A stretch of DNA of 64,000 nt from Pyrinomonadaceae bacterium (GTDB lineage Bacteria; Acidobacteriota; Blastocatellia; Pyrinomonadales; Pyrinomonadaceae), in contig DASZDU010000161.1 in assembly GCA_035941655.1 (NCBI GenBank), positions 2,478 through 66,477 on the forward strand, in the 5' to 3' direction. The notes under the pieces are model-generated. The model made no database searches. It was not told the origin of the DNA and saw nothing but the letters and a program-made list of their open reading frames with translations. Below are positions 10,590-46,818 of this stretch, piece after piece (within the stretch, counting starts at the first letter, position 1; the number at the start of each line of letters is the position of its first letter). A program made the position numbers and the translations under genes.

Positions 10590-11729
10590 TTGCCCACCGC
10601 TTCACCTTGCACCGAATTGCAGAAAACTGACGGAGAAAATTTGACGACGAGCACCGAAACGATTGGTCACACGCTTAGTGTGGCCGCGACGTTCCGGGTC
10701 TACGATGGATATGGCAGCATGGGCGAATACATTGTACTGGGCATGGCCCGGGCTGGGGCGGTCGTGAATGTGATTCCACTTTTGATTGACCTGAACGGGA
10801 CTTTGGACGAGTTCAAGCAAATCTTCTGCGCTTCCCGGCCTGGGATAGTTGGTCCAGTTTTATATTTTTGTGGGCCAAGCGACTGGTTGGACCCATTTCG
10901 CGTAGTTGAGGATTTGTTTATCAACACCATGTGGGAAGCGGACCAACTTCCCGCAGTCTGGTCGGAACGGCTCAATCTGGCACGTGCCGTGATCGTGCCC
11001 TCGCGATTTCTGGTAGAGGTTTGCCGCCGCAGCGGCGTCAATGTTCCCGTTGAGGTCGTGGCCCAGGGAGTGGATCCCGACGTGTATCGCTACGAGCACA
11101 GACCGGAACGAGCTGGCTTGACGACGCTGATGGTCGGTACGGTCGATGATCGCAAACACATCGATGAGGGGATCGCTGCCTGGAAACTCGCCTTCGAGAG
11201 TGACCCGCAAGCTCGGCTCGTTATCAAATCCCGGTTTCAAAAAGGAAACTATGCCTTTGACGACCCGCGCATTAGCTTTTTCAAACAGGACGAGGCGACG
11301 AGGGGAATTGCCCACTGGTATCGTGAAGCCGATGTGCTCCTGGCGCTGGGAAATGAAGGCTTCGGACTTCCCCTCGTGGAAGGCATGGCGACCGGATTAC
11401 CGGTCATCGCTCTGAATTCCGAGGGGCAGGCTGATATCTGCGCTGAGGCTGGTGATTGTTTGTTGCCGGTTGACCCCAGTGCCTGGGTCCCTTACAACGA
11501 TCCTTACTGGGGACCGGCTGGTGTGCAAGCGGTGCCGGGAGTCGAAGATGTTGCGGAGCGACTGCGTTGGGTTGCCGGGCACAAAGACGAGGCGCGTGAA
11601 ATGGGCCGGGCGGCATCAGAATGGGCACGCACGCACCGGAACGTTTGGGCCATGGGACCAGCCATTCTCGAGGTAATGGAACATTACGCCAAACCTGCCC
11701 GCTCCTTGCGCCGTGCAATCAGTTTCTAA
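10590..11729 (+). CDS. glycosyltransferase, GT-B fold (Glycos_transf_1 / GT4-like)
   Basis: EX7E-type motif NEGFGLPLVEGMATGLPVIA. The start codon is uncertain (TTG). Confidence 0.85.
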   Translation: MPTASPCTELQKTDGENLTTSTETIGHTLSVAATFRVYDGYGSMGEYIVLGMARAGAVVNVIPLLIDLNGTLDEFKQIFCASRPGIVGPVLYFCGPSDWLDPFRVVEDLFINTMWEADQLPAVWSERLNLARAVIVPSRFLVEVCRRSGVNVPVEVVAQGVDPDVYRYEHRPERAGLTTLMVGTVDDRKHIDEGIAAWKLAFESDPQARLVIKSRFQKGNYAFDDPRISFFKQDEATRGIAHWYREADVLLALGNEGFGLPLVEGMATGLPVIALNSEGQADICAEAGDCLLPVDPSAWVPYNDPYWGPAGVQAVPGVEDVAERLRWVAGHKDEAREMGRAASEWARTHRNVWAMGPAILEVMEHYAKPARSLRRAISF

Positions 11730-12967
11730 ATTCGCCGCGCGATCTGATAGTTTGCCGCCTGGTCGCGATCGGCTGAGCTCAGACACTCACGATAGAGGCG
11801 ATTCAGACGCGCTGCCTGATGCTTGAGTGTTAATCCTCCAATAATCGTCCTTCGCGCTTCCAGACCTATTTCTTTTCGCAGCGCCTTGTTTCTCAAAAGG
11901 ACGGCGATGGCTTGTGCCAGCTCCTGGACATTGCCGGGTTGGATGAGCCAGCCGTTTTCTCCGTGACGAACAATCTCTTCAATTCCCTGATGGCGGCAGC
12001 CGATAATTGGCTTTCCGGTGGCCATCGCTTCGAGGTAGACGCAACCCATCGCTTCATCCTGGCTGGGCAGGGCAAAGACACTGCACCGTTGCATCGCCTC
12101 GGCAACAGCTCGGCGGCTTTGACGACCGACAACTTCGACCCGCTCGGCAATCTTCAATTCGTGAGAGAGCGCCACCAGGCGCGAGCGTTCCGGCCCGTCA
12201 TCAATAATCTGGTAGCGAAGACAGGGATAGTTCGGAGCCAGTTCTGCGACCGCCCGAATGACTAACTCATGTCCTTTATCTGGAACCAATCGTCCCACGC
12301 TGAGGATTGTCGGAATCGAGTCCTCGGCGTCGTTGCGCGGCGGACTGAACCGAGATGTATTGACGCCGTTGTAGATAACAGTTGGCTTGGTTAAACTGCC
12401 CATCGTATCAACCAGCACCCGGCGCACCGCCTCGCTGACACAAATACTTCTGGCGGCGTTTCGATAGACGAAGCGCGAAGAGCGGTTAACCCACCGACGC
12501 AGGAGTCCTTTTTCTCTCCGGGTGGAAAATACATCGAGTCCGTGAATGGTCACGAGAAAAGGGATCCGCAGTTGGCGAGAAAGCAGCGCAGCGGCGTGTC
12601 CACACGGCAAAGCTGACTGAGCATGGATCAGGTCAATCGGGTGATTCCGGTGCAAGAGACTCACGAAATGGGCCAGGCGTGCGTAGAGTAGCAAGCCCCA
12701 ACTTCCGTAAGCTAGCCTGCCTGGCAGTTGCGGATAACGAACCCGGATCGCCTTAGGCCCTCGCTCGCTGGACTTGAAAGTTCCCCAGGAGATTGGCTTG
12801 GCCGCAATGACTGTCGAGATGACGTTGAAATCTGAAAAGTATTCGAGCGGCTCAGCCACAAAGCTTCCGTCGATTTCATCACTCTCTGAGGGATAAAACG
12901 GTGTAAGCGTCAATACATGAATCGGTCGCGATTCACAGGCGTGGCCCGTAGATCTGGCGTAATCCAT
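11726..12967 (-). CDS. glycosyltransferase, GT-B fold (GT4-like)
   Basis: Motifs VGRLVPDKG and SQDEAMGCVYLEAMATGKPIIG. Its 3' end overlaps the convergent GT gene by 4 nt. Confidence 0.9.
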   Translation of the reverse strand: MDYARSTGHACESRPIHVLTLTPFYPSESDEIDGSFVAEPLEYFSDFNVISTVIAAKPISWGTFKSSERGPKAIRVRYPQLPGRLAYGSWGLLLYARLAHFVSLLHRNHPIDLIHAQSALPCGHAAALLSRQLRIPFLVTIHGLDVFSTRREKGLLRRWVNRSSRFVYRNAARSICVSEAVRRVLVDTMGSLTKPTVIYNGVNTSRFSPPRNDAEDSIPTILSVGRLVPDKGHELVIRAVAELAPNYPCLRYQIIDDGPERSRLVALSHELKIAERVEVVGRQSRRAVAEAMQRCSVFALPSQDEAMGCVYLEAMATGKPIIGCRHQGIEEIVRHGENGWLIQPGNVQELAQAIAVLLRNKALRKEIGLEARRTIIGGLTLKHQAARLNRLYRECLSSADRDQAANYQIARRI

Positions 12968-13175: not shown

Positions 13176-14465
13176 ATGAACATCAACGATTTCCTTCCGG
13201 ATAAGGTTTGTATCAACCTGGATCGAAGACCTGAGCGCTGGAAAAAGGTCCAGTTCCAGTTTGCCCTTCATGATCTCAAATCTGTAAGGCGCTTTCCGGC
13301 TTTGGATGGAGTTACGTTGGAAGTTCCACCCGGTTGGGAAGGCTCACCAGGGGCATACGGGTGTCTGCAGAGCCACCTGGCGGTCGTTCGGGAGGCGCGA
13401 GACAATGGACTAGCTCGAATTTGGATACTTGAAGATGATGTCGTTTTGGATTCTGATTTCAATGACAAATTCTCGCGCTATGCCGAACAAGTGCCATCCG
13501 ATTGGGATATGTTGTTTTTCGGCGGTCTGCATCTCTTTGTCCGTCCGCAGAGAATTTCAGACAACATCTCCAGGTTAGCTCATTCCTTCTCCACCTTTGC
13601 TTATGCGTTGAGGCAGACGGTTTACGATTCCTTTATCGAGATAAACTCGAGGTCGCTCATGCCGGTGGATCTAAATAATGTCGTCCTACAACAGAACTTC
13701 AACTGTTACTGTTTCGCGCCGCCTCTGGCCTGGGTGGCTGAGAATTATTCCGACACCCAGAACAAGTTTTTATATCCCTGGTATTTGAAGGAAGGACTAG
13801 TTATTGCCAGTCCTGAACTGGAGCGGATACAAAAGCAAAGCGTCGTGATTCTTGCCCACCGGGACTGCACTCCCGACCGCAGCCAAACTCGAAATTTGCA
13901 TTTCAAACTCGACTATTATTCAAAGTGGTATCCTCACGTTTCACTCCTGGTCGTGGAGCACGACCAGCGTCCCAGCCTTGATCCCCAGACCTTGCGCGAG
14001 GGTGTTCAATATGAATTTTTGCAGGACGGCAGTGGTTTCAATCCGGCGCGCTGCTTTCAATTGGGATTCGAACTGTTTGAGTCGAGGAAGGAGTTTTTTG
14101 TTTTTTCCGAGAGTGATATTCATTTGGACCGCGAGAATATCGTCGCTAATTTGGAGTTGTGTCTGCGATATGATTTTGTCAGCTCCTTCAGACATCTGAT
14201 TGATTTGTCGGAGGAAGACACCAGGAGGTTGATCGAGGGCAAAGAGATCGACCTCAGCGCGTATGGACGACGTGAACGAAGTGACATTTGCAGTGGCTCA
14301 TGCATTTTTACTCGAAAAGGCCTCCAGAGGATCGGAGGCTGGACAGACGCGAATGAGGCTACAAAAGATGAGACTCAATCACGAAGAGTGAGGCGCATGC
14401 TTTCGGTTTTTGAATCACCTAACCGGGCGCTGCGTTTGTCTCAAACCCAGTTTAATCCAAGGTAA
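13176..14465 (+). CDS. two-domain glycosyltransferase: N-terminal GT25-like, C-terminal GT7/GT2 (beta4GalT-like)
   Basis: N-terminal part: VCINLDRRPERW and WILEDDVV (GT25 pattern). C-terminal part (nt 13836..14360): FNPARCFQLGF, FVFSESDIHL (compare FVFSDVDLIP of beta4GalT) and IGGW. Confidence 0.8.
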   Translation: MNINDFLPDKVCINLDRRPERWKKVQFQFALHDLKSVRRFPALDGVTLEVPPGWEGSPGAYGCLQSHLAVVREARDNGLARIWILEDDVVLDSDFNDKFSRYAEQVPSDWDMLFFGGLHLFVRPQRISDNISRLAHSFSTFAYALRQTVYDSFIEINSRSLMPVDLNNVVLQQNFNCYCFAPPLAWVAENYSDTQNKFLYPWYLKEGLVIASPELERIQKQSVVILAHRDCTPDRSQTRNLHFKLDYYSKWYPHVSLLVVEHDQRPSLDPQTLREGVQYEFLQDGSGFNPARCFQLGFELFESRKEFFVFSESDIHLDRENIVANLELCLRYDFVSSFRHLIDLSEEDTRRLIEGKEIDLSAYGRRERSDICSGSCIFTRKGLQRIGGWTDANEATKDETQSRRVRRMLSVFESPNRALRLSQTQFNPR

Positions 14466-14505
14466 GCAGGGAGCCCAGCTTTCCCGAAACTGTCCGACGC
14501 GCCGC

Positions 14506-14607
14506 TTTCTCTGTGCAACCTCAGTGTTCTCTGTGTCTCGATGGTTGTTTTTCGCGCAATTCATTCACCACAGAGGCACAGCGAACGCGGAGCCTGCACA
14601 GAGAAAA
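14506..14607. repeat. palindromic intergenic element of about 100 bp, 'ctctgtg' family, copy 1 of 5
   Basis: Left arm tttctctgtgcaacctcagtgttctctgtgtctcgatgg. Right arm ccacagaggcacagcgaacgcggagcctgcacagagaaaa. Confidence 0.85.
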
Positions 14608-14679
14608 CAGGGCTCCGGCCAACTTTTCGGGCAAAGCTCAGGGAACCCTTTAGCTAATAATTCGAGGTTGATCAAGTCG

Positions 14680-15510
14680 ATGAATGCTGCGACAAGGCAG
14701 GGCTTTTTTGACATCAATGAGCTGCGGCGAGAGCTGGCACTCATAGATCTGGATCCGAAGTTTGGGCGCATGCTGAAGGACAAGAATGTGATGATCGTCG
14801 GGCCGGCCGAAACCATGCTGGGCACGCGCCAGGGAGAAATGATTGATTCGCACGACGTGGTGGTGAGGTTCAATACGGCGATTCAATACCTGCCCTTCCC
14901 GAGTGATCTGGCAAGAGATATCGGGACTCGAACGGACGTCTTGTATTGCAACAACGAAGTTTTAATGAATGGAATCTTTCATCAAAAAGGCATCTCGCAT
15001 GAAACCTTCAAGCAGGTCTGCGCCGTGGCCGGGATCAAATATCTGGTCAGTACGAATAATGACTTCACGTTCCCGGCTCATGATGAGCCCGAGCCGAAGT
15101 GCCGAGCTGAGTATCGAGCCTTCAAACTATTTCTTCAGCAGCAGGATATCGACATCGAATTCAGGATGTTGTATTCCACCAACGTAATCGTCAGGAGACT
15201 GCTGGACGGCTATGTCGGCAGAACAGGATTCCTGGGCATCGTGGATTTATTGGCTTACGACATTCGCCAGCTGACAATTACCGGGATGACTTTCTACCAC
15301 AAGGGTGGTCACCTTTTTCTTGAAGATTGCGTCAGCGAGCTGCATCCGATGAAGAACCATCAGGGGCTGGAGCCATCGGGGAATATTAAGGGCCATAATT
15401 CATATCTTGAGCTTGAATTGCTGGGGAAGCTCCTCATGCTTCATGGAGCAAAGCTGAAAATTGACGAACAAGTCCAAATGCTGATAGACGCTCGCCGCCC
15501 GAGAGAATAG
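14680..15510 (+). CDS. GT29 (sialyltransferase)-like glycosyltransferase
   Basis: L-motif-like VMIVGPAETMLGTRQGEMIDSHDVVVRFN...DIGTRTDVLYCN (14788..14955). S-motif-like RTGFLGIVDLLAYDIRQLTITGMTFY (15217..15297), followed by YH. VS-like HNSYLE (15394..15411). Start set at ATG 14680, downstream of the repeat. Confidence 0.7.
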   Translation: MNAATRQGFFDINELRRELALIDLDPKFGRMLKDKNVMIVGPAETMLGTRQGEMIDSHDVVVRFNTAIQYLPFPSDLARDIGTRTDVLYCNNEVLMNGIFHQKGISHETFKQVCAVAGIKYLVSTNNDFTFPAHDEPEPKCRAEYRAFKLFLQQQDIDIEFRMLYSTNVIVRRLLDGYVGRTGFLGIVDLLAYDIRQLTITGMTFYHKGGHLFLEDCVSELHPMKNHQGLEPSGNIKGHNSYLELELLGKLLMLHGAKLKIDEQVQMLIDARRPRE

Positions 15511-15515: not shown

Positions 15516-16679
15516 ATGAAAATTACTCTGGTGATTGCTTCGCTTTACGGAGGTGGCGCGGAGCGCGTGGCGTCTAACATGGCGAACTACTGGACGGACA
15601 ACGGTTGGGAGATCTCGATCCTCACAATGTGCGGAAGCAACAACGCCTCCGCTTATGACCTGAATTCGAAGGTAGTTCGTCATGACCTTGGCGCCAGACC
15701 CTCTGGTCATTCCATGCCGGATCAGAGGTCATTAGCAGTGCTCCTTGAAATGCTCAACAATAGTTCTGTTGCTGAGCGGAGCATCTTCACCTTAGATTTT
15801 AATCTCATTCTCGCCTTACGAGATGCCATCATCAGCACTGCTCCCGAAGTCGTCATTTCATTCATCGATGTCACCAACGTAAGGACGCTGTTAGCCACTC
15901 GCGGACTGCGTTTTCCGGTCATTGTCACAGAGCATTGTGATCCCAACCACAATTATCTTGGCGAAGGATGGGAGGGCTTGCGAAGGCGTAGCTATACTCG
16001 CGCGGAGTGTCTGACAGTTCCCAACGAAGAGATCGTCTCTTATTTTTCAAGCGTCATGGATGGACGTGTGCGAGTGATACCTTACCCGATATCAAACGGT
16101 GCCCACGCTGTCGTTGCCGAAAGCAGCGCACGGCGCAAGGAAGGCCGGACGCTGCTGGCTGTGGGCAGGTTGGCACATGAGAAAGGCTTCGATATGTTGC
16201 TGGAGGCGTTCGCTCTAATCGCGCCGCGGCAGCCATCCTGGTGTTTGCAGATTTTGGGAGATGGAGAGCTGCGATCTCAGTTGGAGCAATCCGCGGCCGC
16301 ACTGGGACTGGCACAGCGGGTGCGATTCGGCAGCTTTACGAAGTTGCTCTTTGAGGTCATGCGGCAGGCAGACTTGTTCGTCCTGCCGTCGCGTTGTGAA
16401 GGTTTTCCGAATGTTCTGCTTGAGGCGATGGCTTGCGGGCTGGCGGCAGTGAGTTTTGACTGCCCCAGCGGTCCCAGGCATATCATCCGAGATGGAATTG
16501 ATGGAGTGCTTGTGCCGCCTCAGGATGTGCCAGCTTTGGCGGCGACGCTGGAACGCCTGATGGAGGATGAAGCCGAACGCCGGCGGTTGGCTGCAATGGC
16601 ACCACAGGTGTTGAAGCGTTTCGGGATGGAGAAGATCATGAACATGTGGTCGCAACTGGTGTTGGGTTGTAATGCTTAA
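15516..16679 (+). CDS. glycosyltransferase, GT-B fold (GT4-like)
   Basis: Motifs VGRLAHEKG and SRCEGFPNVLLEAMACGLAAVS. It starts 5 nt after the stop of the GT29-like gene. Confidence 0.9.
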   Translation: MKITLVIASLYGGGAERVASNMANYWTDNGWEISILTMCGSNNASAYDLNSKVVRHDLGARPSGHSMPDQRSLAVLLEMLNNSSVAERSIFTLDFNLILALRDAIISTAPEVVISFIDVTNVRTLLATRGLRFPVIVTEHCDPNHNYLGEGWEGLRRRSYTRAECLTVPNEEIVSYFSSVMDGRVRVIPYPISNGAHAVVAESSARRKEGRTLLAVGRLAHEKGFDMLLEAFALIAPRQPSWCLQILGDGELRSQLEQSAAALGLAQRVRFGSFTKLLFEVMRQADLFVLPSRCEGFPNVLLEAMACGLAAVSFDCPSGPRHIIRDGIDGVLVPPQDVPALAATLERLMEDEAERRRLAAMAPQVLKRFGMEKIMNMWSQLVLGCNA

Positions 16680-16702: not shown

Positions 16703-16776
16703 TTTTCTCTGTGCAACCTCTGCGACCTCTGCGTCTCTGTGGAGAATTTCGATAACCAAGTACTTAACCACAGAGA
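16703..16776. repeat. 'ctctgtg' family element, copy 2 (right arm truncated)
   Basis: tttctctgtgcaacctctgcgacctctgcgtctctgtgg ... ccacagagatgac. Confidence 0.75.
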
Positions 16777-16809: not shown

Positions 16810-17544
16810 GTGAAAGTAATGAGGCCCACCAATAAGATAATTCAAAGCCTGTGGATCGGTTCAGAACTGTCCCTGATGGAGCGTTTATGCATAGCTTCAT
16901 TCCTGGCGCAGGGACATGAGTATCACTTGTATGTTTATGAAGACGTCAAGCACCTTCCTGACGGAACTCTAATCAAAGATGGGAACGAGATATTGCCCTC
17001 GTCCATGATCTTTCAATATCGTGAGTTCAAGTCGTATGCCGGGTTCTCAAACTTCTTTCGCTATAAACTTCTATTGGAGAAAGGGGGATGGTGGGTGGAT
17101 ACCGACATGGTTTGTTTGCGACCCTTCGACTTCGCGGACGCCTATGTCTTCTCGAGTGAAATGAGCGAGGGCCTGGAAGTGACTAACTGCGGAGCTATCA
17201 AGGCCCCCGCCGGCAGTGACGCGATGGGGTATGCCTGGCGAATCTGCCAACAGAAGACTATTGAGAATCTGGTGTGGGGAGAAACCGGTCCTGGATTAAT
17301 GGACCAGGTGGTGCGGCTTTTCTCGCTGGAAGAGTTTAGGCAACCGTCTCAAGTATTCTGCCCTATCAGTTATTGCGAGTGGGATAGCGTATTGCAGCCC
17401 GGTGCGGTGCGATCATTTGATAGCACCACGCATGCTGTGCATTTGTGGAATGAAATGTGGAGGCGCGCGTCTCTGGATAAAGACCAAAAGTTTCACCCGG
17501 ACTGTCTCTACGAAGAACTCAAAAGAAAACATTTGACTCAATAG
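16810..17544 (+). CDS. GT32-like glycosyltransferase (DXD sugar-binding region, Gb3-synthase-like)
   Basis: Motifs IQSLWIG and FSNFFRYKLLLEKGGWWVDTDMVCLRP (SD..R...L...GG.Y.DTD pattern). Confidence 0.8.
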   Translation: MKVMRPTNKIIQSLWIGSELSLMERLCIASFLAQGHEYHLYVYEDVKHLPDGTLIKDGNEILPSSMIFQYREFKSYAGFSNFFRYKLLLEKGGWWVDTDMVCLRPFDFADAYVFSSEMSEGLEVTNCGAIKAPAGSDAMGYAWRICQQKTIENLVWGETGPGLMDQVVRLFSLEEFRQPSQVFCPISYCEWDSVLQPGAVRSFDSTTHAVHLWNEMWRRASLDKDQKFHPDCLYEELKRKHLTQ

Positions 17545-19646
17545 AGAAACGCATACCGTTCGAGGAACTTCTCGTATCTTTCAGCGGCGATGACATGTTC
17601 TAAAACCACATTCTTATCATAGCCTCTTGGGATAAATGTCTTCATCATTTCTTCTTTCCAGACTTCAACACGACTCGGGTCACCTCTATTTTCAAAATAA
17701 CCCCTGACGATAATATCCCAATCGCGGATTCTTTCGACGAACGATGGATGAAAGAATTTCTTGAGCTTCGGATTTATCGCTAGTTCGTAGTGAGTCCGCT
17801 TGTAAGCGTTCGCCATGGCTTTGCAAAACAATTCCCTGCCCTGTTGAGAGAGGTCTTTCCCGGCCCGGTAAATTATTTCAAGACAATCCACAGCGCCAAC
17901 GACATACCTGACCCCGTCATAGATGCCCCAGATATACAGTTCATCAAGCGCCGTCCCGGCATGCGCTCCCAATGATTGAAAATTTTCTACCGTAGCATCG
18001 GCGAGATTAAGATTGTCATGATCCATGAAGATAACCTTGATTTGCCATTGTCCGTTGGCCCAAACGCTTCTCAATCCGACATTTCGCGGGACAAACGACT
18101 CGCCATTGGTGCTGGCTCTGACTGCCAGTAAGGTTCCCCAGAACTTTCCCATCTGCTGCATCGCGGCTGAGAAGTTATGGTCCGCCTGGGCGCGGTTCGC
18201 CGCAACCTTGAACGCGTCGTCCACATATTGCCCGTAGCTTCGATACTTACCAGCAGGCGGCTGGTAAAGACATAGGACCTCATCCAAAACCTCATCGGCC
18301 AACCGTCTATCATCCAGACTGGAGTGTCCGGTCTTCAGACCGTTCGTGAAATAGGTTTCGGCGCCGTCGTCAGACAGATAAGCGGCCAACCGGTCCAGTC
18401 TAAAAGAGCTGGTGCCGGAGATGATCGCCTGCGTCGGCGAAGCGTGTCCGAGAAACTGTACGGTTAGGCCAACGTCACCGGGGATGTCGAACAACGGCGA
18501 TTCATGCTCATCATTAAATGAATCGATTACCGCTCTCATGGCCACGCGCATTTCACCGAATTCACGTCCGAAAATCTCAGGCTCGGTAAAATAGTCAAGA
18601 ATATTTTCGCCAGTCCCGTTTACCTGAACGTTGTAGATGGATGATCTCGAATGAAAGGTAGGCAAGGGGGCTTCGGTCGCATGTATCGAGCGATAAATGC
18701 CTGACAACCTGGAAACTGACTTCGACTCGTATCGCAGGAGCCATTGAGTCGAGCCGCCGTCAAGACGGTGAGACGGAGGAACCAATTCGCCTTGACGCTT
18801 GTGTACGACGCCAAGCGGATAGCGTCCTCTCCGCCCGGCTCGCTTGATTTCAAACTCCAGATCACTTCCGGGAGGTTTGATGACTATCACGACAGCGGTT
18901 AAGGGATACTCGACGAGCGCGTTTAGTTCAGACCCGGTTGAATCGGACACCCAATAGACGTCATATGTTTGGCGGAGTTTTTCGAGAATGCGAGCCTCGT
19001 AGGCAGGCATTTGAGCTAAGGCATGTTTGTCTTCTACTTCAACGGAGGAGGGCTGAGCAGGATCGAGGTCCATGAGACCCCTGGAGGTATTGACGTGCCT
19101 GAGGATTCGATCAACCACCTCGTCGGGTTGGAAGATGTAACGCGCCAGTGAGAGCTTGCACTCACGGCGCGAGAGGGCAATAAAGTTTATCAGCGCCCTT
19201 TTAGTCGTTCGACTTCCCCTGATTTGATTGTGGACCCGCTCGAGTCTTTCCAGTTTGCGCCGCAACTCAAAAGTGAAACCGCTAAGGTCGATTGCCGAGA
19301 AGCCCTCCTGTAAAACGGTATCACTAACTTTCAAAGGTGGGCCGATGTCTGGTTTAAGTCTGAGTTGAGTCAGGAGAACATCGAATTCTTGTAGATTCTC
19401 TGGAGGGATTTTTAACACCTGATGCTCCAGCATCAGGATGGTAAGCCGCCTGATCTCCCAACTGTCACCTTCATTTCCCTGTGAGACAGCAAGCAGCTTG
19501 AGCATCAAACTCCGATTGTATGATGGGCACTGCAGGAATGAGTTAAAGAGTTCGTAGGCCCGAAACGGATCATCGAATTCAGTTGCCAGGGTATTGAACA
19601 AGCGCTCCGGCTTAAGGGTCGAGGAATGCCTTGCTAATGTTTTCAT
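17538..19646 (-). CDS. hypothetical 702-aa cytoplasmic protein (possible kinase-like fold)
   Basis: Uninterrupted ORF with no signal peptide and low GC. It contains VVIVIKPPGSDLEFEIKRAG and a D-x4-N loop (FMDHDNLNL). No family recognised. Confidence 0.75.
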   Translation of the reverse strand: MKTLARHSSTLKPERLFNTLATEFDDPFRAYELFNSFLQCPSYNRSLMLKLLAVSQGNEGDSWEIRRLTILMLEHQVLKIPPENLQEFDVLLTQLRLKPDIGPPLKVSDTVLQEGFSAIDLSGFTFELRRKLERLERVHNQIRGSRTTKRALINFIALSRRECKLSLARYIFQPDEVVDRILRHVNTSRGLMDLDPAQPSSVEVEDKHALAQMPAYEARILEKLRQTYDVYWVSDSTGSELNALVEYPLTAVVIVIKPPGSDLEFEIKRAGRRGRYPLGVVHKRQGELVPPSHRLDGGSTQWLLRYESKSVSRLSGIYRSIHATEAPLPTFHSRSSIYNVQVNGTGENILDYFTEPEIFGREFGEMRVAMRAVIDSFNDEHESPLFDIPGDVGLTVQFLGHASPTQAIISGTSSFRLDRLAAYLSDDGAETYFTNGLKTGHSSLDDRRLADEVLDEVLCLYQPPAGKYRSYGQYVDDAFKVAANRAQADHNFSAAMQQMGKFWGTLLAVRASTNGESFVPRNVGLRSVWANGQWQIKVIFMDHDNLNLADATVENFQSLGAHAGTALDELYIWGIYDGVRYVVGAVDCLEIIYRAGKDLSQQGRELFCKAMANAYKRTHYELAINPKLKKFFHPSFVERIRDWDIIVRGYFENRGDPSRVEVWKEEMMKTFIPRGYDKNVVLEHVIAAERYEKFLERYAFLY

Positions 19647-20289: not shown

Positions 20290-23200
20290 TTACGGATTCG
20301 TAGCCTTATCCTTGGTCGCTGGTTTGATCCTAAAGTCATCGAGACGATCTTTGCCTGGGGGTGGAACTGGCCGGGCGGGCGCCGGCGCCGCAGGCGTTGC
20401 CGGAACACAGACCGCTTGGCTGGCCGGCGCGGGTCTTCCGTCCGTCACCCTAAAAATGCCCCACAAACCAAATTGGGCCTTGTCGGGAACGAAAGCGCTA
20501 TACAGGTAATCGCCGGCGATTTGCGCTGGCCCACCAGCCTCGTCTATCACAATGTCGTAATGGGCCGTCGAGCCAAGATTATCCAGAGAACCCATCCATT
20601 GCGAGAGTTTGTTATCGCCTATCTTTGTAGAGCCCGCGGCATAAGGGTTTCTCTGCCAGACGTGGCCGTGCAGGCTGAAGACCTGCACGATTCCTGTGCC
20701 CGGAGGATGCAGCATCCGGAAGCGAACCCTGGCTCCTTTCGGCGCAGTGAAGATTGGGGTTTGCGGTTCGGCCTTGACCAACCCATTCGACACTGAACAT
20801 TGATTATCACCATTTGCGGCAAAGGTATTAGAGCTCGCATTGCCGAACCGATAATAGGTTGGCTCCGTGCCATAGTTAACTGCACTGATCGTTCTCTGCG
20901 AACTGGGATTACCTACCTTCAGGTCCTCCGTCATCATTACGACGAACTCGCGGAACCCTTTTCGCAGATTGATGTTGGCAGCGGCACGGGTCAAGAGCTT
21001 GGTGTTTGGGTCTTCGAGTGGCCCGCAGCTAAGTTGTGCGGGTTTCCCGTTCTTATCCAATCCCTCGCAGGTAATCTGAGCCTCAGTTGTCCCTTCCGGC
21101 TCGATCACCATCGAGCCGTAAAGACCGTTGATGTGCTGCAGCAGCGGATCTGAGGGCATCAAGTTGAGAGCGCCGAATTCAATTGGCGTATAGTTCAGGG
21201 TTCCGTTTTGATCTCTCTTGATACTGCCGGCGTACCACTGGTATTGAGCCGGGGAGCCGCCGATTGTTGCCACCTGATTCTTACTTGTGTCGTAGCCGAC
21301 GTTAATGCCGCTGCTGGTGGTCGCATCGTAAGCGAGGAGTTGCGGCTGCAGGCCGACCATTTTAGACGGCTTGAGCTGAAGCACCGTCGCCGGTTGGTTC
21401 ACCACCGCAGGTTGGTCGAAAGGAGGTTGAAGGGTGTATTTCTGTTGAAGAACCTGGGCCGACGAACTAATTCCGTTTCTCAAAGTGACATTGATGCAAT
21501 CGCCCGCGGCGGCGCGCAAAATGAGCGGTTCCCTGGGCACGCCTTTCTTAAGCTGACCGTTGGCGAGGTCGGCAGTGAAGACATACATCAACCCGAGCGG
21601 ATTTGTGAGCTGTGTATTGGGCGTGCCGGTTCCCTGTCCGCGACTGTTGAGGATGAGTGCCTTTTCCGGAAGACCGTGTTCGACGTCTATCGCCGTAATA
21701 TCGAAATTCTTAATCCTGGTTGACGGATGATCTTTCGGGCAGGTCGAGTAATCAGTTTTGTTCGTCGCGGCAACCGGATTGTTCGGCAACGGCTGCAAGT
21801 TCTTAGCCTCCGCGGTCGGGCTGTAAGCGCGCAGCAGTCCCCACATCCCGTTTGTGATGCCATTGTCCCCGGCGCTGGCAACGTATAGATGATCCGCAAA
21901 GTTGCACGGAGCGCTCGTATCGTCCGGACATGGATTCACTGTCTGGGTGGAAGACAGCGGCGATCGGAAATGCATCTCAGTGTGCTCGGACAGCCCCATC
22001 GCCTGGCTGCTTCGATACCCTGAATTGTTCCATGCCGACTCAGCGAGCCAATTCACTCCGCGTATGTTGAAGAAGTGGGCCAACTGGTGAGCGCCCACCA
22101 GTAGACGCACTTGCACCGGATCATTTTGATAAGTACGCAGCAGAGGTGTAAAGGGATCGCCATTGGGAGCAAGTGTCGGCGCCTGCTTCAAGGTGGAGTC
22201 GAACGCAGACGACAGGTCTGCGAACTGGCCCACGCGCCACGGCACTGGCTCGTTGCGATAATTCAGTGAAAAAGTGCCGACGGTCTGGCCGCTGCTAATC
22301 AGTTGCGGTGTACTCGGAGTGGCCACGCGGTTGGCCGGATCAATGTTTCTGTACCCGATGGCTGGATCGGGACTGGGAATGACTGGGCCCGTACCGCCCA
22401 CATTCCTGCTGTAAGCGAGTTGAAAGTCCTGAAACTCCAGCGCGAACTCGCGGAAGCTATCTGCCCCGTTAGTGCCTGAGAGAATGTCGGCCTTCCAACT
22501 GGTGGGGCCTCCATCGGGGCGCACAGGCGAAGCACCCGCACCACCCATGATTTTACCGGTTTCGGAATTACGCCAGCTCGCAGTCGACGGTTCGACCAGT
22601 AGACCAGCGTAGAGACCGGCCTGCTGGTGTGTGGACGGGCCATAGTGGTCGTGAGTGAAAACGGTTCCCAGGGTGCGGTCCTTGCCGCCATTGTCCAGCA
22701 CCGGGTCGGCGTACCACCGCTGTACGGTCGTTTGCGCGCCGGCCCATACGTGGCAGCGCGCCTGATTCTCGTTCTTCGAGCAATCAATGATGCCGGAAGG
22801 TGGATCCTTGAGTTTGAGTCCAGGATTGGACTGTCCGTTCCACGTCCCGCCCGTGTTGTTTATCGCGTGGACAATTTCCTGGACCTCTGTCGGACTGAAT
22901 GTGCCGTCTTCGTAGTTGTACCCGTTTGCGGCGCCGTCGGAGCCTTGCACGTCAAACTTCACGAGGTGGACGTGCTGACCTAGAATGTCCGTCGGCGTGC
23001 GTACTTGAAAATCATCTGCCTTGTAGTAATTGGGCACGAGGTTGGTATGCCACACCTCTACGACCTCTCCTGAATTGGCGCGGAAGAAAAGAGGCTCAGG
23101 TGCGCGCCGCGGAATATTCGCATTAGACGGGTCAGTTACATAGTTGCTTGTCGGGATGACGTCTTCCCACAAAGAGAGTATTCGCTGCTGCGGAAAGTGC

Positions 23201-26200
23201 CAGCCCGTAGGGTTCGTTGAGGCAGGGTTTGCCGGATTACGGTTGAGGGTCACATCAAGTTGGAAGACCGCAGCCTTGTAACGACGCGGCACTTTGCCGC
23301 CCGCTACATCACCTTTTAGATCAATTCCCGGATCCGCGAAAGGCGCACCCAACTGTGAACCAAACTGGTTCTGGGCCGCATAATTGGCCGAAGGCTTGCG
23401 CGGCAGTCCGTTGGTTACAAAGAATCCGGGCAGTCCGTCCGGCTTAAAGCTGGGTTGATTTCGCGTCGAGTTGAATTTCATCGCCGCCTGCTCCACCTTC
23501 GTGCCCTGTTCGGGAAGTTGAATTGCGTTTAGGTATCCCAGCATTTGGTTCTGATGGTTCTTGCAAGCCGCGATGAAAGTATTATTCTGGTTTTCCTTGC
23601 AGTTGATGAAGAAGTCTTTGCTCCAATCATATTTGCTGTGTACTTCGTTGATGACCGTGCCGCCGGTAACTAAATGGCGAGGCAAACCCCCGTCCAGATA
23701 CTTATTCGGCACAGGATTGCCCTGTTGGTCTAACTCAGGAGCGAAGTCGAGTGGGGGATGAGGCGCACGCGTTCCGGCGACGGCTGGAATGAAGAACGGA
23801 TAGCCCGGATACATTCCCTTATTCAGATCATCCTGATTTACCAGGGCGGCATAACCTATCGCGGTTGCGCCGCTGCCGAGGGCCGGGCAATCGCTGCCGA
23901 CCATCTTGGCGGGGTTGTAGGAGGAATCGACTTGACAGATCTTTACTCGGGCCGGAATTGGGGCCATCGCTAAGGTCGGCAACGGAACAAGCGCGGGGAT
24001 GGGCACACCGCTCGCAATCTCGGCGTCAGGCAGCGCCCGATTCCAGCCAGACTTGCTTACCTTTCCGCTTTCCAACACGGTTCCGGCCTCGAAGACATCA
24101 TGCACACGCCAGGCGCCCCACATGCCGGCCGCGAAGTGCGGATAGAAATGGCAGTGGAACAGTGAATCGCCGGCAGTCTTGTTCAGATTACCGCTGCCGT
24201 TGTAGACCATCTCAAGGCTGTAGCTGGCTCCCGGACTGATTATTTGGCTGTCCAAATAAGTAGATTTATCGCTGTCGGGCGATTGCAACCACTGCGAGGC
24301 GTGTTGATGATGAACGTGTGTTACTCCGTTACCTCCATGCAGAATCCTGAACTTGACATGGTCGTTCATGTAACTGTGGTAGATGTTTGAGGGGTCATCC
24401 GGGTAATAGACCATTGCTGCCTTTGGGCCTTTTGGCGGATCTTTTGTGACTGAAGGATTGGTACAACTCCCGTTAGCGATAGTTTGCGGGTTGCAAGGTT
24501 GAGGCGGCGCGGGCGGGGTAAAGTTGGCGGGCACGTCAACAATCATCGCCGGGTCGCCGACCGTCCACGAACTCAGAAAAAATTCTTCATACTTACAATC
24601 AACGCAATTTGCCATCGGTCCGACGCCGATGCGATTGGCATAGATCTCTGCGCCAATGCCTCCGGTGCCGTAGTTGATTGCAAAAGCGTCCATCCCGGCT
24701 CCCGTCGTCGGGGCCCATTGAAGATCCGTAAAGACCGGAAATGCCTGAGAGGCGTTGCTCACCTCGTGGTACATCACAGTGATCTCGCGGTAAGGCTGTT
24801 TGCGATCCGGCAACGACGGGTTGGCGCAGAAGAGCGGATCGACTTTGACGTTGGGGTTCGGATTGTCAGCCTGACTGCAAGGTGGTTCGGGTCTGTCGAC
24901 GCCAGTGGTGCCGGGAAATCTCCCGTGTGCCGGACCTGTGATGAGGGCTGTCAGGTCGCTATAGACCAGATTATTGTTGGCATCGAGCATCTTCAGAATA
25001 GGAGTCTTTGGAGAAATCGTGGTGCCGTCTGATCGTGCCGAGCCATCAGGATAGACGGCGTCATAATTGATGATTGGGTGACTGTCGGCTGAATAAAGAT
25101 AGCCATCCGCCATCTTCTTCACTGTCGCTGTGGTCGTAACACCGCCAGCTACTCTCTTCAACTTGCATTCTGCCGGCACGATCGTTGTTGCCGGACAATC
25201 GAGCGTCGCACCAGGGGGCAATCGATTGGCATTGTAGGTTGCTAATTGCAAGTCGTTTGCCGTCACCTGACTGCGATACCATTCGGCTCCTTCCGGTTGA
25301 ACATTAACCGCGCCGATCAGACCGGCCGCGATTTGACTGATCATCAGATAGTCGATCGATTGACCCGTCGTGTTCGCGTCGCCCAGACTGTAGAGCAGGA
25401 AAGAACCCTCTGCCTGCGCATAGAGCGCGTAGGTTTTAACTTCTCCAGCTTTTGCAGGAGTCGGCGGTGTCTTTCCCGGAGTATTAACACAGGGAATCAA
25501 CTTGGCAGGGTTCGCCGGGTCTTTGCATTGCGGGCTGTCGGCAAGGCCAGAACTGTTGGTGCCAACAAAAGAGCCGTCACTTGTAATAGCATCGACCAGA
25601 TTCATGCCCTGCACATGCATCGACACCTGAGGCGTCCCGAGGACTGGGAATGGACTGTTTCCAGGAGATTGCAGCGGCGGGTACTGATAGACAGCGTTTT
25701 TCAGTTTGATCTGCAAGCAGTCGCCGACGTTGGCGCGCAAGACAAGCGGGCGCGGTCGCCGATAGCCCTTGAGCTGAAGTTGCGTCATGTCGACATCGCT
25801 CTCAAGCGCAAAAATCTGCGCGTTGGGCATCGCCGCCCCAAGGCGATTCAACATGTAAGGCTGAGAGAGAGCTACCACGCTGGCATTGATATTTCGTTTG
25901 CACGCAATTGGAATTACCGTCGTGGCGAGGTTTGGGCCAGACGACGAGGAAGTTACTGGCGCAGAAACTGTCGTTGTTGCCGCTGCCGTGGGTGCCAGGC
26001 TGGTCTCGGCATTCTGGCTGGGTATTGGACTGCTTGTTGACTGAGAGTCCGTCGCCGACACCGCCCGGTCTGTAGTGACGAGTGGATTAGGCGATTGTGC
26101 CGAGACGACTGCTGCATCGGAGTCCGGTGCCGGCGAAAGGGCAGGCGTGGTTTGTGCGATTGCCGGGTCCGCAGTCAACAATAAGACGAGCGCTAAGACG

Positions 26201-26241
26201 AAGCTTGCAAGGCTGGCGAGCATCCTTCTATGACTTAGCAT
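20290..26241 (-). CDS. giant secreted multicopper oxidase (MnxG/MofA-like, putative Mn(II) or other metal oxidase)
   Basis: GGAGGAGG RBS before ATG 26241, then a signal peptide. Copper motifs: HVHHQH (24301..24318), HCHFYPHFAAGMWG (24115..24156), HVHLVKFD (22951..22974), THDHYGPSTHQQ (22621..22656). Repeated cupredoxin-like segments (LVLRANVGDCLQIKLKN, LILRAAAGDCINVTLRN). Confidence 0.9.
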   Translation of the reverse strand: MLSHRRMLASLASFVLALVLLLTADPAIAQTTPALSPAPDSDAAVVSAQSPNPLVTTDRAVSATDSQSTSSPIPSQNAETSLAPTAAATTTVSAPVTSSSSGPNLATTVIPIACKRNINASVVALSQPYMLNRLGAAMPNAQIFALESDVDMTQLQLKGYRRPRPLVLRANVGDCLQIKLKNAVYQYPPLQSPGNSPFPVLGTPQVSMHVQGMNLVDAITSDGSFVGTNSSGLADSPQCKDPANPAKLIPCVNTPGKTPPTPAKAGEVKTYALYAQAEGSFLLYSLGDANTTGQSIDYLMISQIAAGLIGAVNVQPEGAEWYRSQVTANDLQLATYNANRLPPGATLDCPATTIVPAECKLKRVAGGVTTTATVKKMADGYLYSADSHPIINYDAVYPDGSARSDGTTISPKTPILKMLDANNNLVYSDLTALITGPAHGRFPGTTGVDRPEPPCSQADNPNPNVKVDPLFCANPSLPDRKQPYREITVMYHEVSNASQAFPVFTDLQWAPTTGAGMDAFAINYGTGGIGAEIYANRIGVGPMANCVDCKYEEFFLSSWTVGDPAMIVDVPANFTPPAPPQPCNPQTIANGSCTNPSVTKDPPKGPKAAMVYYPDDPSNIYHSYMNDHVKFRILHGGNGVTHVHHQHASQWLQSPDSDKSTYLDSQIISPGASYSLEMVYNGSGNLNKTAGDSLFHCHFYPHFAAGMWGAWRVHDVFEAGTVLESGKVSKSGWNRALPDAEIASGVPIPALVPLPTLAMAPIPARVKICQVDSSYNPAKMVGSDCPALGSGATAIGYAALVNQDDLNKGMYPGYPFFIPAVAGTRAPHPPLDFAPELDQQGNPVPNKYLDGGLPRHLVTGGTVINEVHSKYDWSKDFFINCKENQNNTFIAACKNHQNQMLGYLNAIQLPEQGTKVEQAAMKFNSTRNQPSFKPDGLPGFFVTNGLPRKPSANYAAQNQFGSQLGAPFADPGIDLKGDVAGGKVPRRYKAAVFQLDVTLNRNPANPASTNPTGWHFPQQRILSLWEDVIPTSNYVTDPSNANIPRRAPEPLFFRANSGEVVEVWHTNLVPNYYKADDFQVRTPTDILGQHVHLVKFDVQGSDGAANGYNYEDGTFSPTEVQEIVHAINNTGGTWNGQSNPGLKLKDPPSGIIDCSKNENQARCHVWAGAQTTVQRWYADPVLDNGGKDRTLGTVFTHDHYGPSTHQQAGLYAGLLVEPSTASWRNSETGKIMGGAGASPVRPDGGPTSWKADILSGTNGADSFREFALEFQDFQLAYSRNVGGTGPVIPSPDPAIGYRNIDPANRVATPSTPQLISSGQTVGTFSLNYRNEPVPWRVGQFADLSSAFDSTLKQAPTLAPNGDPFTPLLRTYQNDPVQVRLLVGAHQLAHFFNIRGVNWLAESAWNNSGYRSSQAMGLSEHTEMHFRSPLSSTQTVNPCPDDTSAPCNFADHLYVASAGDNGITNGMWGLLRAYSPTAEAKNLQPLPNNPVAATNKTDYSTCPKDHPSTRIKNFDITAIDVEHGLPEKALILNSRGQGTGTPNTQLTNPLGLMYVFTADLANGQLKKGVPREPLILRAAAGDCINVTLRNGISSSAQVLQQKYTLQPPFDQPAVVNQPATVLQLKPSKMVGLQPQLLAYDATTSSGINVGYDTSKNQVATIGGSPAQYQWYAGSIKRDQNGTLNYTPIEFGALNLMPSDPLLQHINGLYGSMVIEPEGTTEAQITCEGLDKNGKPAQLSCGPLEDPNTKLLTRAAANINLRKGFREFVVMMTEDLKVGNPSSQRTISAVNYGTEPTYYRFGNASSNTFAANGDNQCSVSNGLVKAEPQTPIFTAPKGARVRFRMLHPPGTGIVQVFSLHGHVWQRNPYAAGSTKIGDNKLSQWMGSLDNLGSTAHYDIVIDEAGGPAQIAGDYLYSAFVPDKAQFGLWGIFRVTDGRPAPASQAVCVPATPAAPAPARPVPPPGKDRLDDFRIKPATKDKATNP

Positions 26242-26414
26242 TTTTCCTCCTCCAGGTGGGCGGGTACCAGGAGCACCGCAGGTGACCAAAGCAGACTTCC
26301 GTCCCCTGCTGCACTCACTTGTCCAGCGATGCTAACTGTGCATCAGGTTGTTCATTAGTGAGTGTGAAAGGCCTCGATTAAAAGAAGAAAAGGTTCCGAT
26401 CTTGAGGCGGGCTA

Positions 26415-26474: not shown

Positions 26475-27227
26475 TTACTTTTGGTTCGCCGTCTCGGCCA
26501 GGATTTTGGCAAGTGTTGCCGGCGGAGAGAGCCCGTAAACGCGCGTCCAATAGCCCGCCCGCTCGTTGCCGATGAGAACGAGCGGAGTGTGATCGTTCTT
26601 ATCTGCGGTGGCAGCGCCGAGGGCCTTGAGCAACGTATCAATCTCAGATTTATCGCCCGTGACAAACGTCCATCCCGGGCCGGCCTTAAATTTGACCGCA
26701 AACGCTTGCAGCCTTTCAGGCACATCGATCGTCGGATCAACGCTTATTGAAATTAACTCAACATCGCGCCCGGCGTGTTCCCCCAGTTCCACCTGAAGTC
26801 GGCGAAAAGTCGCGGTCAGCGGTGGGCAGATTGCCGTGCAAGTAGTAAAGATAAAATTGATAGCGACTGTCTTGCCCTTGACCAGGTCAGTGTAAAAGTT
26901 CAGGCGTTTGCCGTTTTGATCCAAGACCGGAGTGTCTGGAATATTTAATCGAGTGGAACCCGTTTGTTGTGTTGCTAATTCAGGCTCATTGTTCGAGGCT
27001 GCGGAAGGTAAGGACGTGTCTTTCACCAATCTGAGAGTCATCCCACATTTCGGACATTTACCGGCCCGAGTGGACACGACCTCGGGATGCATCGGGCAGG
27101 TATAACGTCTGGCGCTCTTGTTACCGGCCTTCGGTCGTGCCTGTGCCATTGCGTTTCCCGAGTCGCGAAGAGGAACGCCCGCGCACAACATGAACGTGCC
27201 GAGCAGGATTGTGAAGATTAGTTTCAT
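26475..27227 (-). CDS. SCO1/SenC-family copper chaperone with an N-terminal heavy-metal-binding domain
   Basis: AGGTGA RBS before ATG 27227 and a signal peptide. HMBD motif YTCPMHPEVVSTRAGKCPKCGM. Thioredoxin-like CxxxC (FTTCTAICPP). Confidence 0.85.
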   Translation of the reverse strand: MKLIFTILLGTFMLCAGVPLRDSGNAMAQARPKAGNKSARRYTCPMHPEVVSTRAGKCPKCGMTLRLVKDTSLPSAASNNEPELATQQTGSTRLNIPDTPVLDQNGKRLNFYTDLVKGKTVAINFIFTTCTAICPPLTATFRRLQVELGEHAGRDVELISISVDPTIDVPERLQAFAVKFKAGPGWTFVTGDKSEIDTLLKALGAATADKNDHTPLVLIGNERAGYWTRVYGLSPPATLAKILAETANQK

Positions 27228-27279
27228 CGGGGCATCACCTCGCCACACGTTAATTAAGTTTGCGGACCTGGAACCCGGC

Positions 27280-31805: not shown

Positions 31806-31907
31806 AAAATCTCTGTGCGTCCTCCGTGCTCTCTGTGCCTTTGTGGTGTGTTCGTTGAAATAATCACCACTGAGACACAGCGGACACTAAGGTGGCACGG
31901 AGAAAAT
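31806..31907. repeat. 'ctctgtg' family element, copy 3
   Basis: aatctctgtgcgtcctccgtgctctctgtgcctttgtgg ... ccactgagacacagcggacactaaggtggcacggagaaaa. Confidence 0.85.
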
Positions 31908-46721: not shown

Positions 46722-46818
46722 TACTCTCCGGCAGTCTCTGTGTTCTCTGTGTCTCAGTGGTATTAGGTTTAAAGCCTAACCACGGAGGCACAGAGCTCAC
46801 AGAGACTGCACAGAGAAT
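46722..46818. repeat. 'ctctgtg' family element, copy 4
   Basis: ctctccggcagtctctgtgttctctgtgtctcagtgg ... ccacggaggcacagagctcacagagactgcacagagaat. Confidence 0.85.

Follow-up and report, generated by a model that had tools for sequence, protein, structure and literature searches.

Members of glycosyltransferase family 29 (GT29) make the sialylated glycans of animals, and the origin of the family is debated. What would such an enzyme do in a bacterium? The question is raised by a stretch of 64,000 nucleotides (nt) from contig DASZDU010000161.1 of a Pyrinomonadaceae metagenome-assembled genome (MAG), in which an open reading frame (ORF) at 14680–15510 on the forward (+) strand encodes a protein with the sialylmotifs of GT29. 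This whole stretch is called the window here, and positions given without the name of another locus refer to it. An earlier reading made from the letters alone (the sequence-only reading) had pointed out the four motifs, had regarded GT29 as essentially eukaryotic and viral, and had suggested a sugar donor other than sialic acid. Three points are considered below: whether the protein belongs to GT29, where its gene came from, and which sugar it would transfer to which acceptor. The protein is a GT29 family member by hidden Markov model (HMM) search, by fold and by sialylmotifs, and it is probably a soluble, cytoplasmic glycosyltransferase of the GT-A variant-2 fold that uses a CMP-activated ulosonic acid to decorate a lipid-anchored surface glycan.

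The gene and its product

The longest ORF over this interval, in the ORF listing of the window, extends from 14410 to 15510 (+). The true start of the GT29 gene is placed at the ATG at 14680, because its homologues (a 91%-identical protein, P0001, and ∼100 other relatives) share the N-terminus and the length of the resulting product; these proteins have 271–280 amino acids (aa) and the same start position. The product of 276 aa plus stop is identical in sequence to GenBank HEV2827546.1, which is named "glycosyltransferase family 29 protein" and comes from a contig of 66.8 kb in a Pyrinomonadaceae MAG; its source is thus an acidobacterium in the class Blastocatellia. All of the motif strings quoted in the sequence-only reading are found in it: VMIVGPAETMLGTRQGEMIDSHDVVVRFN at aa 37–65 (14788–14874), DIGTRTDVLYCN at aa 80–91, RTGFLGIVDLLAYDIRQLTITGMTFY at aa 181–206 (15220–15297), YH at aa 206–207 and HNSYLE at aa 239–244 (15394–15411).

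No transmembrane or other hydrophobic segment was found in the protein, the maximum Kyte–Doolittle mean over 19 residues being 1.13, as expected from the cytoplasmic location proposed for it. Cysteines occur only at residues 90, 114, 141 and 217, so that none occupies the positions of the disulfide that joins motifs L and S, and this absence too had been read correctly. The ratio of nonsynonymous to synonymous substitution rates (dN/dS) against the orthologue in locus L010 is 0.21, and the gene is under purifying selection. No NCBIfam model matched the GT29 protein, nor any of its GT25, MFS, GT32 and 702-aa neighbours.

Family membership and predicted fold

The Pfam profile Glyco_transf_29 (PF00777) matches the protein with 32.3 bits, above the gathering cut-off of 23 (E 8.8e-8), which bears out the assignment first made from motifs. 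PF00777 is the only Pfam family that matched at E values up to 10, and precomputed matches to it are also present in homologues. The alignment joins aa 38–115, which contain motif L, to profile positions 58–129. A partial match of this kind is normal for GT29, because the vertebrate subfamilies themselves match each other mainly by motif L; between ST6Gal1 and ST3Gal-I, for example, motif L reaches an E value of 3e-10 and motif S one of 0.8.

Searches of the sequences in the Protein Data Bank (PDB) gave the same answer. With phmmer the single protein found GT29 chains only, by weak matches, and a profile of 48 family members again found GT29 chains only (E 2e-4 to 4e-3); one sub-threshold stretch of the latter search placed 'WLeGn..vgRTGfiaiv' on 'WLQGHgrYPSTGILSVI' of ST3Gal-I, which is motif S. 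A broader profile of 92 sequences, built from diverse relatives collected by exhaustive HMM search, matched porcine ST3Gal-I with an E value of 2.1e-12 over profile positions 26–225, covering motifs L through VS. The corresponding values were ∼2e-11 for ST6Gal-I, ∼4e-9 for ST8Sia-III and 1e-5 for CstII of family GT42. When the family alignment was compared with human ST6Gal1 by hhalign (the ST6Gal1 sequence was checked and is 100% identical to 4JS1), motif L alone was aligned. Motifs S, III and VS could be mapped only with the 92-sequence profile, a forced global alignment being meaningless, and the residue-level mapping given below is that of the HMM alignment.

An AlphaFold2 model, computed from the 48-sequence alignment, has a mean predicted local distance difference test score (pLDDT) of 87 and a predicted template modeling score (pTM) of 0.88. 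The 30 best matches of this model in the PDB by Foldseek are all vertebrate GT29 enzymes (ST6GalNAc-II, ST8Sia-III, ST3Gal-I and ST6Gal-I), with a probability of 1.00, E values from 4.5e-8 to 8e-6 and template modeling (TM) scores of 0.43–0.55. The GT42 enzymes CstII and Cst-I come next (E ∼2e-5), followed by a sharp drop with nothing significant. Among viral models, the best named matches are sialyltransferases of poxviruses and herpesviruses and GT29 proteins of Mimiviridae and phages. The predicted structure thus agrees with the GT-A variant-2 fold of sialyltransferases.

Two other assignments were considered and rejected. For membership in GT42 (CstII/Cst-I; Pfam CST-I) there is no Pfam match, and the E values for GT42 and GT29 are 1e-5 versus 2e-12 in the profile search and ∼2e-5 versus ∼5e-8 in Foldseek. 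For the MptE-like/DUF115 family (PF01973), which includes Maf-type nonulosonic acid transferases and archaeal pterin kinases, there is likewise no Pfam match, and the fold match is marginal (8sd5, E 3.8e-3 in Foldseek).

Sialylmotifs and conserved residues

The motif L region (14788–14952, +; aa 37–91, VMIVGPA...IDSHDVVVRFN...DIGTRTDVLYCN) would form the nucleotide-sugar-binding, Rossmann-like half of the protein. It was aligned to ST6Gal1, ST3Gal-I, ST6GalNAc2 and ST8Sia3 by HMMER, hhalign and the profiles. Residues G41, P42, T45, R63, N65, D80, G82, D86 and Y89 are invariant in the clade of close homologues, and both the first Cys of the motif and the Asn of VGN are replaced, the sequence being VGPA. 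Motif S (15220–15297, +; aa 181–206) was located by profile alignment to ST3Gal-I, in which 'prtG' falls on 'PSTG' and 'itGmtF' on 'LYGFGA'. R181-T182-G183 therefore lie on P-S-T-G, and T201-G202-M203 on Y-G-F; the Cys of motif S is absent, and R181, T182, G183, G202, T204, F205 and Y206 are invariant in the clade.

Motif III had been read as YH. That string is present, at aa 206–207, but the 92-sequence profile favours another residue as the equivalent: in the motif III region (15295–15318, +; aa 206–213, YHKGGHLF), 'ggg.hlf' (G209-G210-H211-L-F) stands opposite KGNWHHYW of ST3Gal-I. With a one-residue ambiguity in this alignment and Y206-H207 as the alternative, H211 is more likely than Y206-H207 to be the counterpart of the motif III His. 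Residues Y206, H207, G209, G210 and H211 do not vary within the clade, but they do in the wider family.

Motif VS (15394–15411, +; aa 239–244, HNSYLE) is placed by the same profile, which aligns 'sskHdsekel' to 'TGVHDGDFES' of ST3Gal-I, with H239 and E244 on H-x4-E. In GT29 enzymes the His of this motif is known to serve as the catalytic base (PMC10225777), and H239 is predicted to do so here. H222 of HPMKNH was considered as the VS His and rejected; it is not invariant, being Asp in the relative P0067. The alignment of the clade has 30 invariant residues, including R63, N65, R181-T182-G183, Y206, H207, H211, H239, S241 and E244. The 92 diverse relatives all share R63, G82 and G183, and at least 90% of them have H239.

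Origin of the gene

The sequence-only reading had raised the possibility of horizontal transfer from eukaryotes or viruses. The family is indeed frequent in contigs of giant viruses and phages, and the G+C content of the GT25, GT29 and GT32 genes (0.49–0.50) is slightly below the window mean of 0.54. However, the best relatives outside the family are at most 37% identical, the closest viral ones included, and the vertebrate enzymes ∼15% identical (by structural alignment). The 120 best sequence matches listed are all metagenomic, with every source name bacterial (Acidobacteriota and Bacteroidota), and all 27 genome loci of the family are bacterial MAGs. The G+C content at third codon positions is 0.625 in the GT29 gene, within the range of its neighbours (0.55–0.66). 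Gene order is also conserved: at least eight Pyrinomonadaceae loci show synteny of the glycosyltransferase cluster, in the order TonB-type outer-membrane protein (OMP), MFS protein, GT4, GT4, GT25, GT29, GT4, GT32, 702-aa protein and giant protein, with GT29 proteins 52–65% identical, and the arrangement of TonB-OMP, MFS, glycosyltransferases and GT29 is kept in Pyrinomonadaceae and Blastocatellia together at 49–64% GT29 identity. Recent acquisition from a eukaryote or a virus is therefore highly improbable. Because this order is conserved in both groups, the comparisons point to vertical descent, the gene apparently being an old, functional resident of its lineage.

An acidobacterial-type order of TonB-OMP, MFS, GT29 and GT4 is also found in loci L017, L018, L021, L033 and L036, which come from MAGs named 'uncultured Heliomicrobium sp.'. 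Their GT29 proteins are ∼50% and the neighbouring proteins 62–70% identical, and the organism label looks doubtful.

Sugar donor

No homologue of NeuA, NeuB or KdsB was found in the 64-kb window, either by Pfam on ORFs of at least 120–150 aa or by phmmer on all stop-to-stop ORFs of at least 80 aa, which agrees with the earlier remark that no CMP-sialic acid pathway is visible there. In the wider superfamily, by contrast, such genes recur. The phage protein P0183 (750 aa; L049/L050) consists of two GT29-like domains fused to a KdsB-type synthetase of CMP-activated 3-deoxy-D-manno-oct-2-ulosonate (Kdo); the KdsB part scores 205 bits with NCBIfam NF003952 (cut-off 193) and 39 bits with PseF, and the gene adjoins those of a portal protein and a HAD hydrolase. 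Four viral contigs (L054, L059, L067 and L089) carry fusions of GT29-like domains with CTP_transf_3, and in 29 of 49 viral loci (L053–L101) NeuA- and/or NeuB-type genes lie within ±5 kb. In a Lachnospiraceae MAG (L046, 2287–12470), genes for NeuB, a GT29-like protein, a multidomain GT29 protein, a pyruvyltransferase and a NeuA-HAD protein follow in this order, with others in between; the multidomain protein, of 1,246 aa, joins a GT29 domain to GT4, MptE-like and nucleotide-sugar transferase domains. The locus is a nonulosonic-acid glycan cluster of Firmicutes with GT29-like enzymes at its centre. Among the informative relatives P0161 is the most similar, with 29% identity over the full length, and it shares the signature TFYxGGH...HNSxxE. 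It is fused to a KpsC/KpsS-type Capsule_synth domain, and its gene lies beside NeuB and three cytidylyltransferase genes.

Because relatives are repeatedly fused or adjacent to KdsB, NeuA and NeuB genes, the comparison supports CMP-activated ulosonic acids as the donors of the superfamily, in which Kdo-type and nonulosonic-type partners both occur. The lack of linked donor genes in the clade of the window protein is compatible with either a housekeeping pool of CMP-Kdo or a nonulosonic-acid cluster elsewhere in the genome. For the window enzyme we would put CMP-Kdo a little short of an even chance; a nonulosonic acid made elsewhere in the genome (N-acetylneuraminic acid, Neu5Ac; legionaminic acid, Leg; pseudaminic acid, Pse; or ketodeoxynonulosonic acid, Kdn) is a serious possibility, and some other donor is unlikely.

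In its specific form, the Kdo alternative is that the enzyme is a CMP-Kdo-dependent alpha-Kdo transferase that draws on the housekeeping Kdo pool for lipopolysaccharide (LPS) and adds a non-reducing or outer-core Kdo. Any diderm that makes LPS is expected to have CMP-Kdo. Nonulosonic-acid genes are absent from the window and from the ±10 kb around ∼38 loci of the family, and the fusion of P0183 to a KdsB-type synthetase, above the NCBIfam cut-off, and that of P0161 to a KpsC/KpsS-type domain also speak for this alternative. A plant GT29 protein, RCKT1/MGP2, has been proposed to be an inverting CMP-beta-Kdo transferase (PMC11288761). With this proposal, and with distant relatives fused to a KdsB-type synthetase, the suggestion of the sequence-only reading that the donor is a non-sialic sugar such as Kdo is a reasonable idea. 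However, the KdsB fusion is phage-borne and only ∼40% identical over motif L, most of the informative contexts of relatives hold NeuB and NeuA-type genes rather than KdsB, and no residue-level rule separates Kdo-using from sialic-acid-using GT29 enzymes. The housekeeping-pool, outer-core version is possible without being probable.

Alternatively, the enzyme could be a sialyl- or nonulosonyltransferase that takes CMP-Neu5Ac, CMP-Kdn, CMP-Leg or CMP-Pse, made by genes elsewhere, and caps a beta-galactoside produced by the neighbouring GT25-like enzyme. The GT25 and GT29 genes form a tightly coupled pair. In the lipooligosaccharide (LOS) of Haemophilus and Neisseria, Lic2A/LgtB (GT25) acts and then a sialyltransferase, an order that the pair mirrors. 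Moreover, all solved structural neighbours use CMP-Neu5Ac, and relatives lie inside NeuB/NeuA clusters (L046, L051/L052 and the 29 of 49 viral loci). On the other hand, NeuA, NeuB and NeuC are near none of the ∼38 loci of the clade, and the literature that could be searched gave no account of nonulosonic acids from Acidobacteria. We consider nonulosonyl capping rather unlikely; if it occurred, it would mean a LOS-like Sia-Gal epitope in a soil bacterium.

Proposed reaction and acceptor

By analogy with solved GT29 structures, motifs L and S would bind a CMP-activated 2-keto-3-deoxy-ulosonic acid, H239 of motif VS would act as the general base on the acceptor hydroxyl, and H211 and Y206 would lie near the phosphate. 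A metal-independent, SN2-like displacement would then bring the sugar onto the acceptor with inversion. The reaction is envisaged at the inner face of the membrane, on a lipid-anchored surface glycan such as an LPS or LOS core, and the acceptor is plausibly a galactoside made by the adjacent GT25 enzyme.

This enzyme is encoded at 13176–14465 (+); it has 429 aa and matches Pfam PF01755 at 36.5 bits. In locus L001 the stop of the GT25 gene overlaps the start of the GT29 gene by 4 nt and the next GT4 gene follows directly, and in L011–L014 and L037 the GT25 and GT29 genes abut. Because of this overlap or abutment and the directly following GT4 gene, GT25, GT29, GT4 and GT32 look like one operon for consecutive steps. 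No initiating phosphoglycosyltransferase, Wzx/Wzy protein or ABC exporter was found by Pfam among the scanned ORFs of the window (those of at least 120–150 aa), and the absence of an initiating transferase, flippase and polymerase from this set suggests that the operon would extend a pre-existing lipid-anchored acceptor.

Several observations weigh against this reading of the enzyme. The TM-scores to solved GT29 structures are moderate (∼0.45–0.55), and the canonical motifs are altered in the clade, with VGPA for VGN(S/A) and GGH-LF for H-Y-W. NeuA, NeuB and KdsB genes are lacking within ±10 kb of the ∼38 own-family loci (the search of close relatives included phmmer on 37 genome loci), so that the link to a donor comes from relatives with no more than 37% identity. 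It is the gene neighbourhood that suggests the acceptor and the LPS core, and the searchable literature holds no biochemical data for this protein or for any bacterial GT29. Furthermore, members at 37–45% identity, from Bacteroidota, Ignavibacteria and other Acidobacteriota, lie in clusters of B12-binding radical-SAM (S-adenosylmethionine), SAM methyltransferase and SPASM genes, not of glycosyltransferases, so the GT29-like family may serve more than one pathway.

The order in these clusters (L005, L008/L009 and L003; relatives P0112, P0093 and P0115; P0139 and P0141) is an unassigned gene, B12-radical-SAM, methyltransferase, GT29-like, B12-radical-SAM, double methyltransferase, in some cases arylsulfotransferase, and radical-SAM/SPASM. 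A Wzx-type flippase is also present at times, and some members at this level of identity are methyltransferase–GT29 fusions of ∼565 aa.

Such contexts, including the fusions to SAM methyltransferases, would suit a GT29 fold recruited to a role outside glycans or outside sugar transfer, or an inactive relic, and the fold is shared with MptE-like pterin kinases (8sd5). In this lineage, however, the gene has five glycosyltransferase genes as neighbours, neither the His and Glu of motif VS nor the nucleotide-binding motifs vary, the low dN/dS ratio indicates constraint, and the MptE-like Pfam family is not matched. Recruitment or decay is quite improbable for the window protein, and a soluble glycosyltransferase acting with a CMP-ulosonic donor is preferred.

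Going further, and speculatively, the GT29 clade of Pyrinomonadaceae and Blastocatellia might use CMP-Kdo in place of a sialic acid and, in the cytoplasm, attach alpha-Kdo to an LPS-core-like glycan that contains galactose; we regard this as not very likely. If it were true, it would be the first bacterial GT29 with an assigned activity and the prokaryotic counterpart of the plant Kdo transferase for rhamnogalacturonan II (RG-II), and it would point to transferases of Kdo or ulosonic acids, in bacteria and their viruses, as the starting point of the sialyltransferase family. The window enzyme is soluble and has 276 aa, its operon is defined and its fold is predicted with confidence, which makes it a tractable candidate for the first activity of a bacterial GT29. 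Work on its activity could decide between Kdo and nonulosonic acids as the donors of bacterial GT29, and could yield a disulfide-free sialyltransferase-type catalyst that can be expressed in the cytoplasm.

Distribution and relation to known enzymes

GT29 can no longer be regarded as essentially eukaryotic and viral. In 2018, Petit et al. described 23 bacterial GT29 sequences, mostly alphaproteobacterial, that have the four sialylmotifs but neither a transmembrane domain nor the L/S cysteines, and argued that eukaryotic GT29 derives from bacteria, through proteobacterial genes (PMC5811610); a 2023 review repeats their account. The NCBI pipeline already names the window protein and its relatives GT29, and in this respect the annotation of the gene itself is ordinary. 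The family profile, however, matches 3,274 metagenomic clusters at 50% identity with E values up to 1e-3 (1,007 at 1e-10 and 66 at 1e-30), far more than the 23 sequences of the 2018 work, the superfamily around the clade being mostly metagenomic and viral. Among species-representative genomes, close members of the family are found in Pyrinomonadaceae, Blastocatellia, Vicinamibacterales, Bacteroidota and Ignavibacteria, and more distant GT29-like genes in Alpha- and Gammaproteobacteria, Planctomycetota, Bacteroidales and Lachnospiraceae.

The proteobacterial GT29-like proteins (Alpha-, Gamma- and Epsilonproteobacteria; PMC5811610) are also bacterial, soluble and without L/S cysteines, and have four sialylmotifs. 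Those of Rhodovulum marinum (L039), Hyphomonadaceae (L045) and Thiohalobacterales (L040) match the superfamily profile over their full length (E 1e-19 to 1e-22). In contrast to the window protein, they keep VIGNA/VGNA and HYW motifs; BLAST aligns them to it over motif L only (35–43% identity over ∼60–90 residues), and their genomic contexts differ. The acidobacterial clade, recognized by VGPA, TFYHxGGH and GHNSYxE, therefore appears to be a distinct and more derived branch. This clade was not in the 2018 study (PMC5811610), and no mention of it was found in the searchable literature. The new elements are modest ones: a clade of Acidobacteriota, so far undescribed, whose genes lie in a conserved GT25–GT29 operon, and a bacterial and viral superfamily much larger than described, with recurrent fusions to CMP-sugar synthetases.

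The vertebrate enzymes (porcine ST3Gal-I, 2WML/2WNB; human ST6Gal-I, 4JS1/6QVT; ST8Sia-III, 5BO6-9; ST6GalNAc-II, 6APJ/6APL) belong to the same Pfam family and share the predicted fold, the sialylmotifs in the same order (motif III being placed less surely) and an H-x4-E on the catalytic His; apart from GT42, they are the only significant fold matches in the PDB. At ∼15% identity in structural alignment, the window protein differs from them in having 276 aa without the vertebrate insertions, in lacking the signal anchor, the stem and the L–S disulfide, and in being predicted to be cytoplasmic, whereas they are Golgi-lumenal. It also has VGPA in place of VGN(S), and GGH-LF in place of motif III of the H-Y-W type. 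The L–S disulfide and type II topology are likewise missing from the published bacterial GT29 proteins (PMC5811610); they are features of eukaryotic members, and their absence is no bar to family membership. The plant RCKT1 resembles the window protein by description, as a GT29 in an organism without a sialic acid pathway and with CMP-Kdo as the proposed donor, and it offers a precedent for a donor other than sialic acid, but it is a Golgi type II membrane protein, and the acceptor in its proposed activity is the pectin RG-II.

CstII and Cst-I (GT42) of Campylobacter jejuni are bacterial and cytoplasmic or membrane-associated, have the same GT-A variant-2 fold with a His general base, and act on LOS galactosides. 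In the fold and profile searches they come second, behind GT29 by ∼7 orders of magnitude in the profile search and without a Pfam CST-I match to the window protein, and sialylmotifs are poorly conserved in GT42 (PMC5811610). The viral and phage GT29-like proteins are small soluble domains of the same superfamily (23–37% identity, in some cases nearly full length). They are usually fused to, or encoded beside, cytidylyltransferase and NeuB genes, whereas the window gene is not.

The glycosyltransferase cluster and neighbouring genes

Upstream of the GT25-like gene lie two GT4 genes, at 10590–11729 (+) and 11726–12967 (−), recognized by Pfam and synteny. Downstream, a GT4 gene at 15516–16679 (+) begins 5 nt after the GT29 stop (Pfam Glycos_transf_1 and Glyco_transf_4; synteny) and is followed at 16810–17544 (+) by a GT32-like gene, syntenic in relatives, with the DXD sugar-binding region PF04488 and the alpha-1,4-glycosyltransferase conserved region PF04572. 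In the GT25-like protein (13176–14465), the Pfam GT25 match covers the N-terminal ∼110 aa only. For the ∼215 aa at its C-terminus (from about aa 212) Pfam gives no match at E values up to 1, and this part may be a second domain. A functional reading of the adjacent TonB-receptor and MFS genes was considered and rejected, since the loci that share them are all of one class and plain synteny suffices.

Compared with the 91%-identical locus L010, where the GT25–GT29 spacer is 42 nt long, the spacer in the window contains an insertion of 175 nt (14466–14640), which lies between two genes that overlap or abut in relatives. It forms a long imperfect hairpin (minimum free energy −80 kcal/mol), and a 34-nt piece of it recurs between genes at 61006–61039 and 31872–31905, in part at 16704–16720 and 46740–46755, and also in L012. 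The insertion looks like a member of a palindromic repeat family of the repetitive extragenic palindrome (REP) or miniature inverted-repeat transposable element (MITE) kind.

Between the GT4 and GT29 genes, relatives have a variable slot, occupied by Sulfotransfer_1/3 in L002 (8224–9977) and by Acetyltransf_6 with GINT1_N in L001 (4309–8495); together with GT25, GT29 and GT32, these form a rather eukaryote-like set of glycan-modifying families.

The gene at 17538–19646 (−) encodes a conserved protein of 702 aa with no Pfam match (E up to 1) and no NCBIfam match. It always adjoins the GT32-like gene in the Pyrinomonadaceae and Blastocatellia loci, at 49–72% identity. The gene beyond it, at 20290–26289 (−), encodes a predicted secreted protein of 1,999 aa without a Pfam match at E values up to 0.001; its translation has a Ser/Thr/Pro-rich N-terminal stretch and a multicopper-oxidase-like motif, 'HCHFYPHFAAGMWG'. 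Two SCO1/SenC copper-chaperone genes and a cytochrome c/periplasmic-binding fusion flank the gene for this giant protein (a region that includes 26475–27383 (−) and 28905–29546 (−)), and in several relatives (L013, L015 and L037) this gene and the glycosyltransferase cluster are syntenic.

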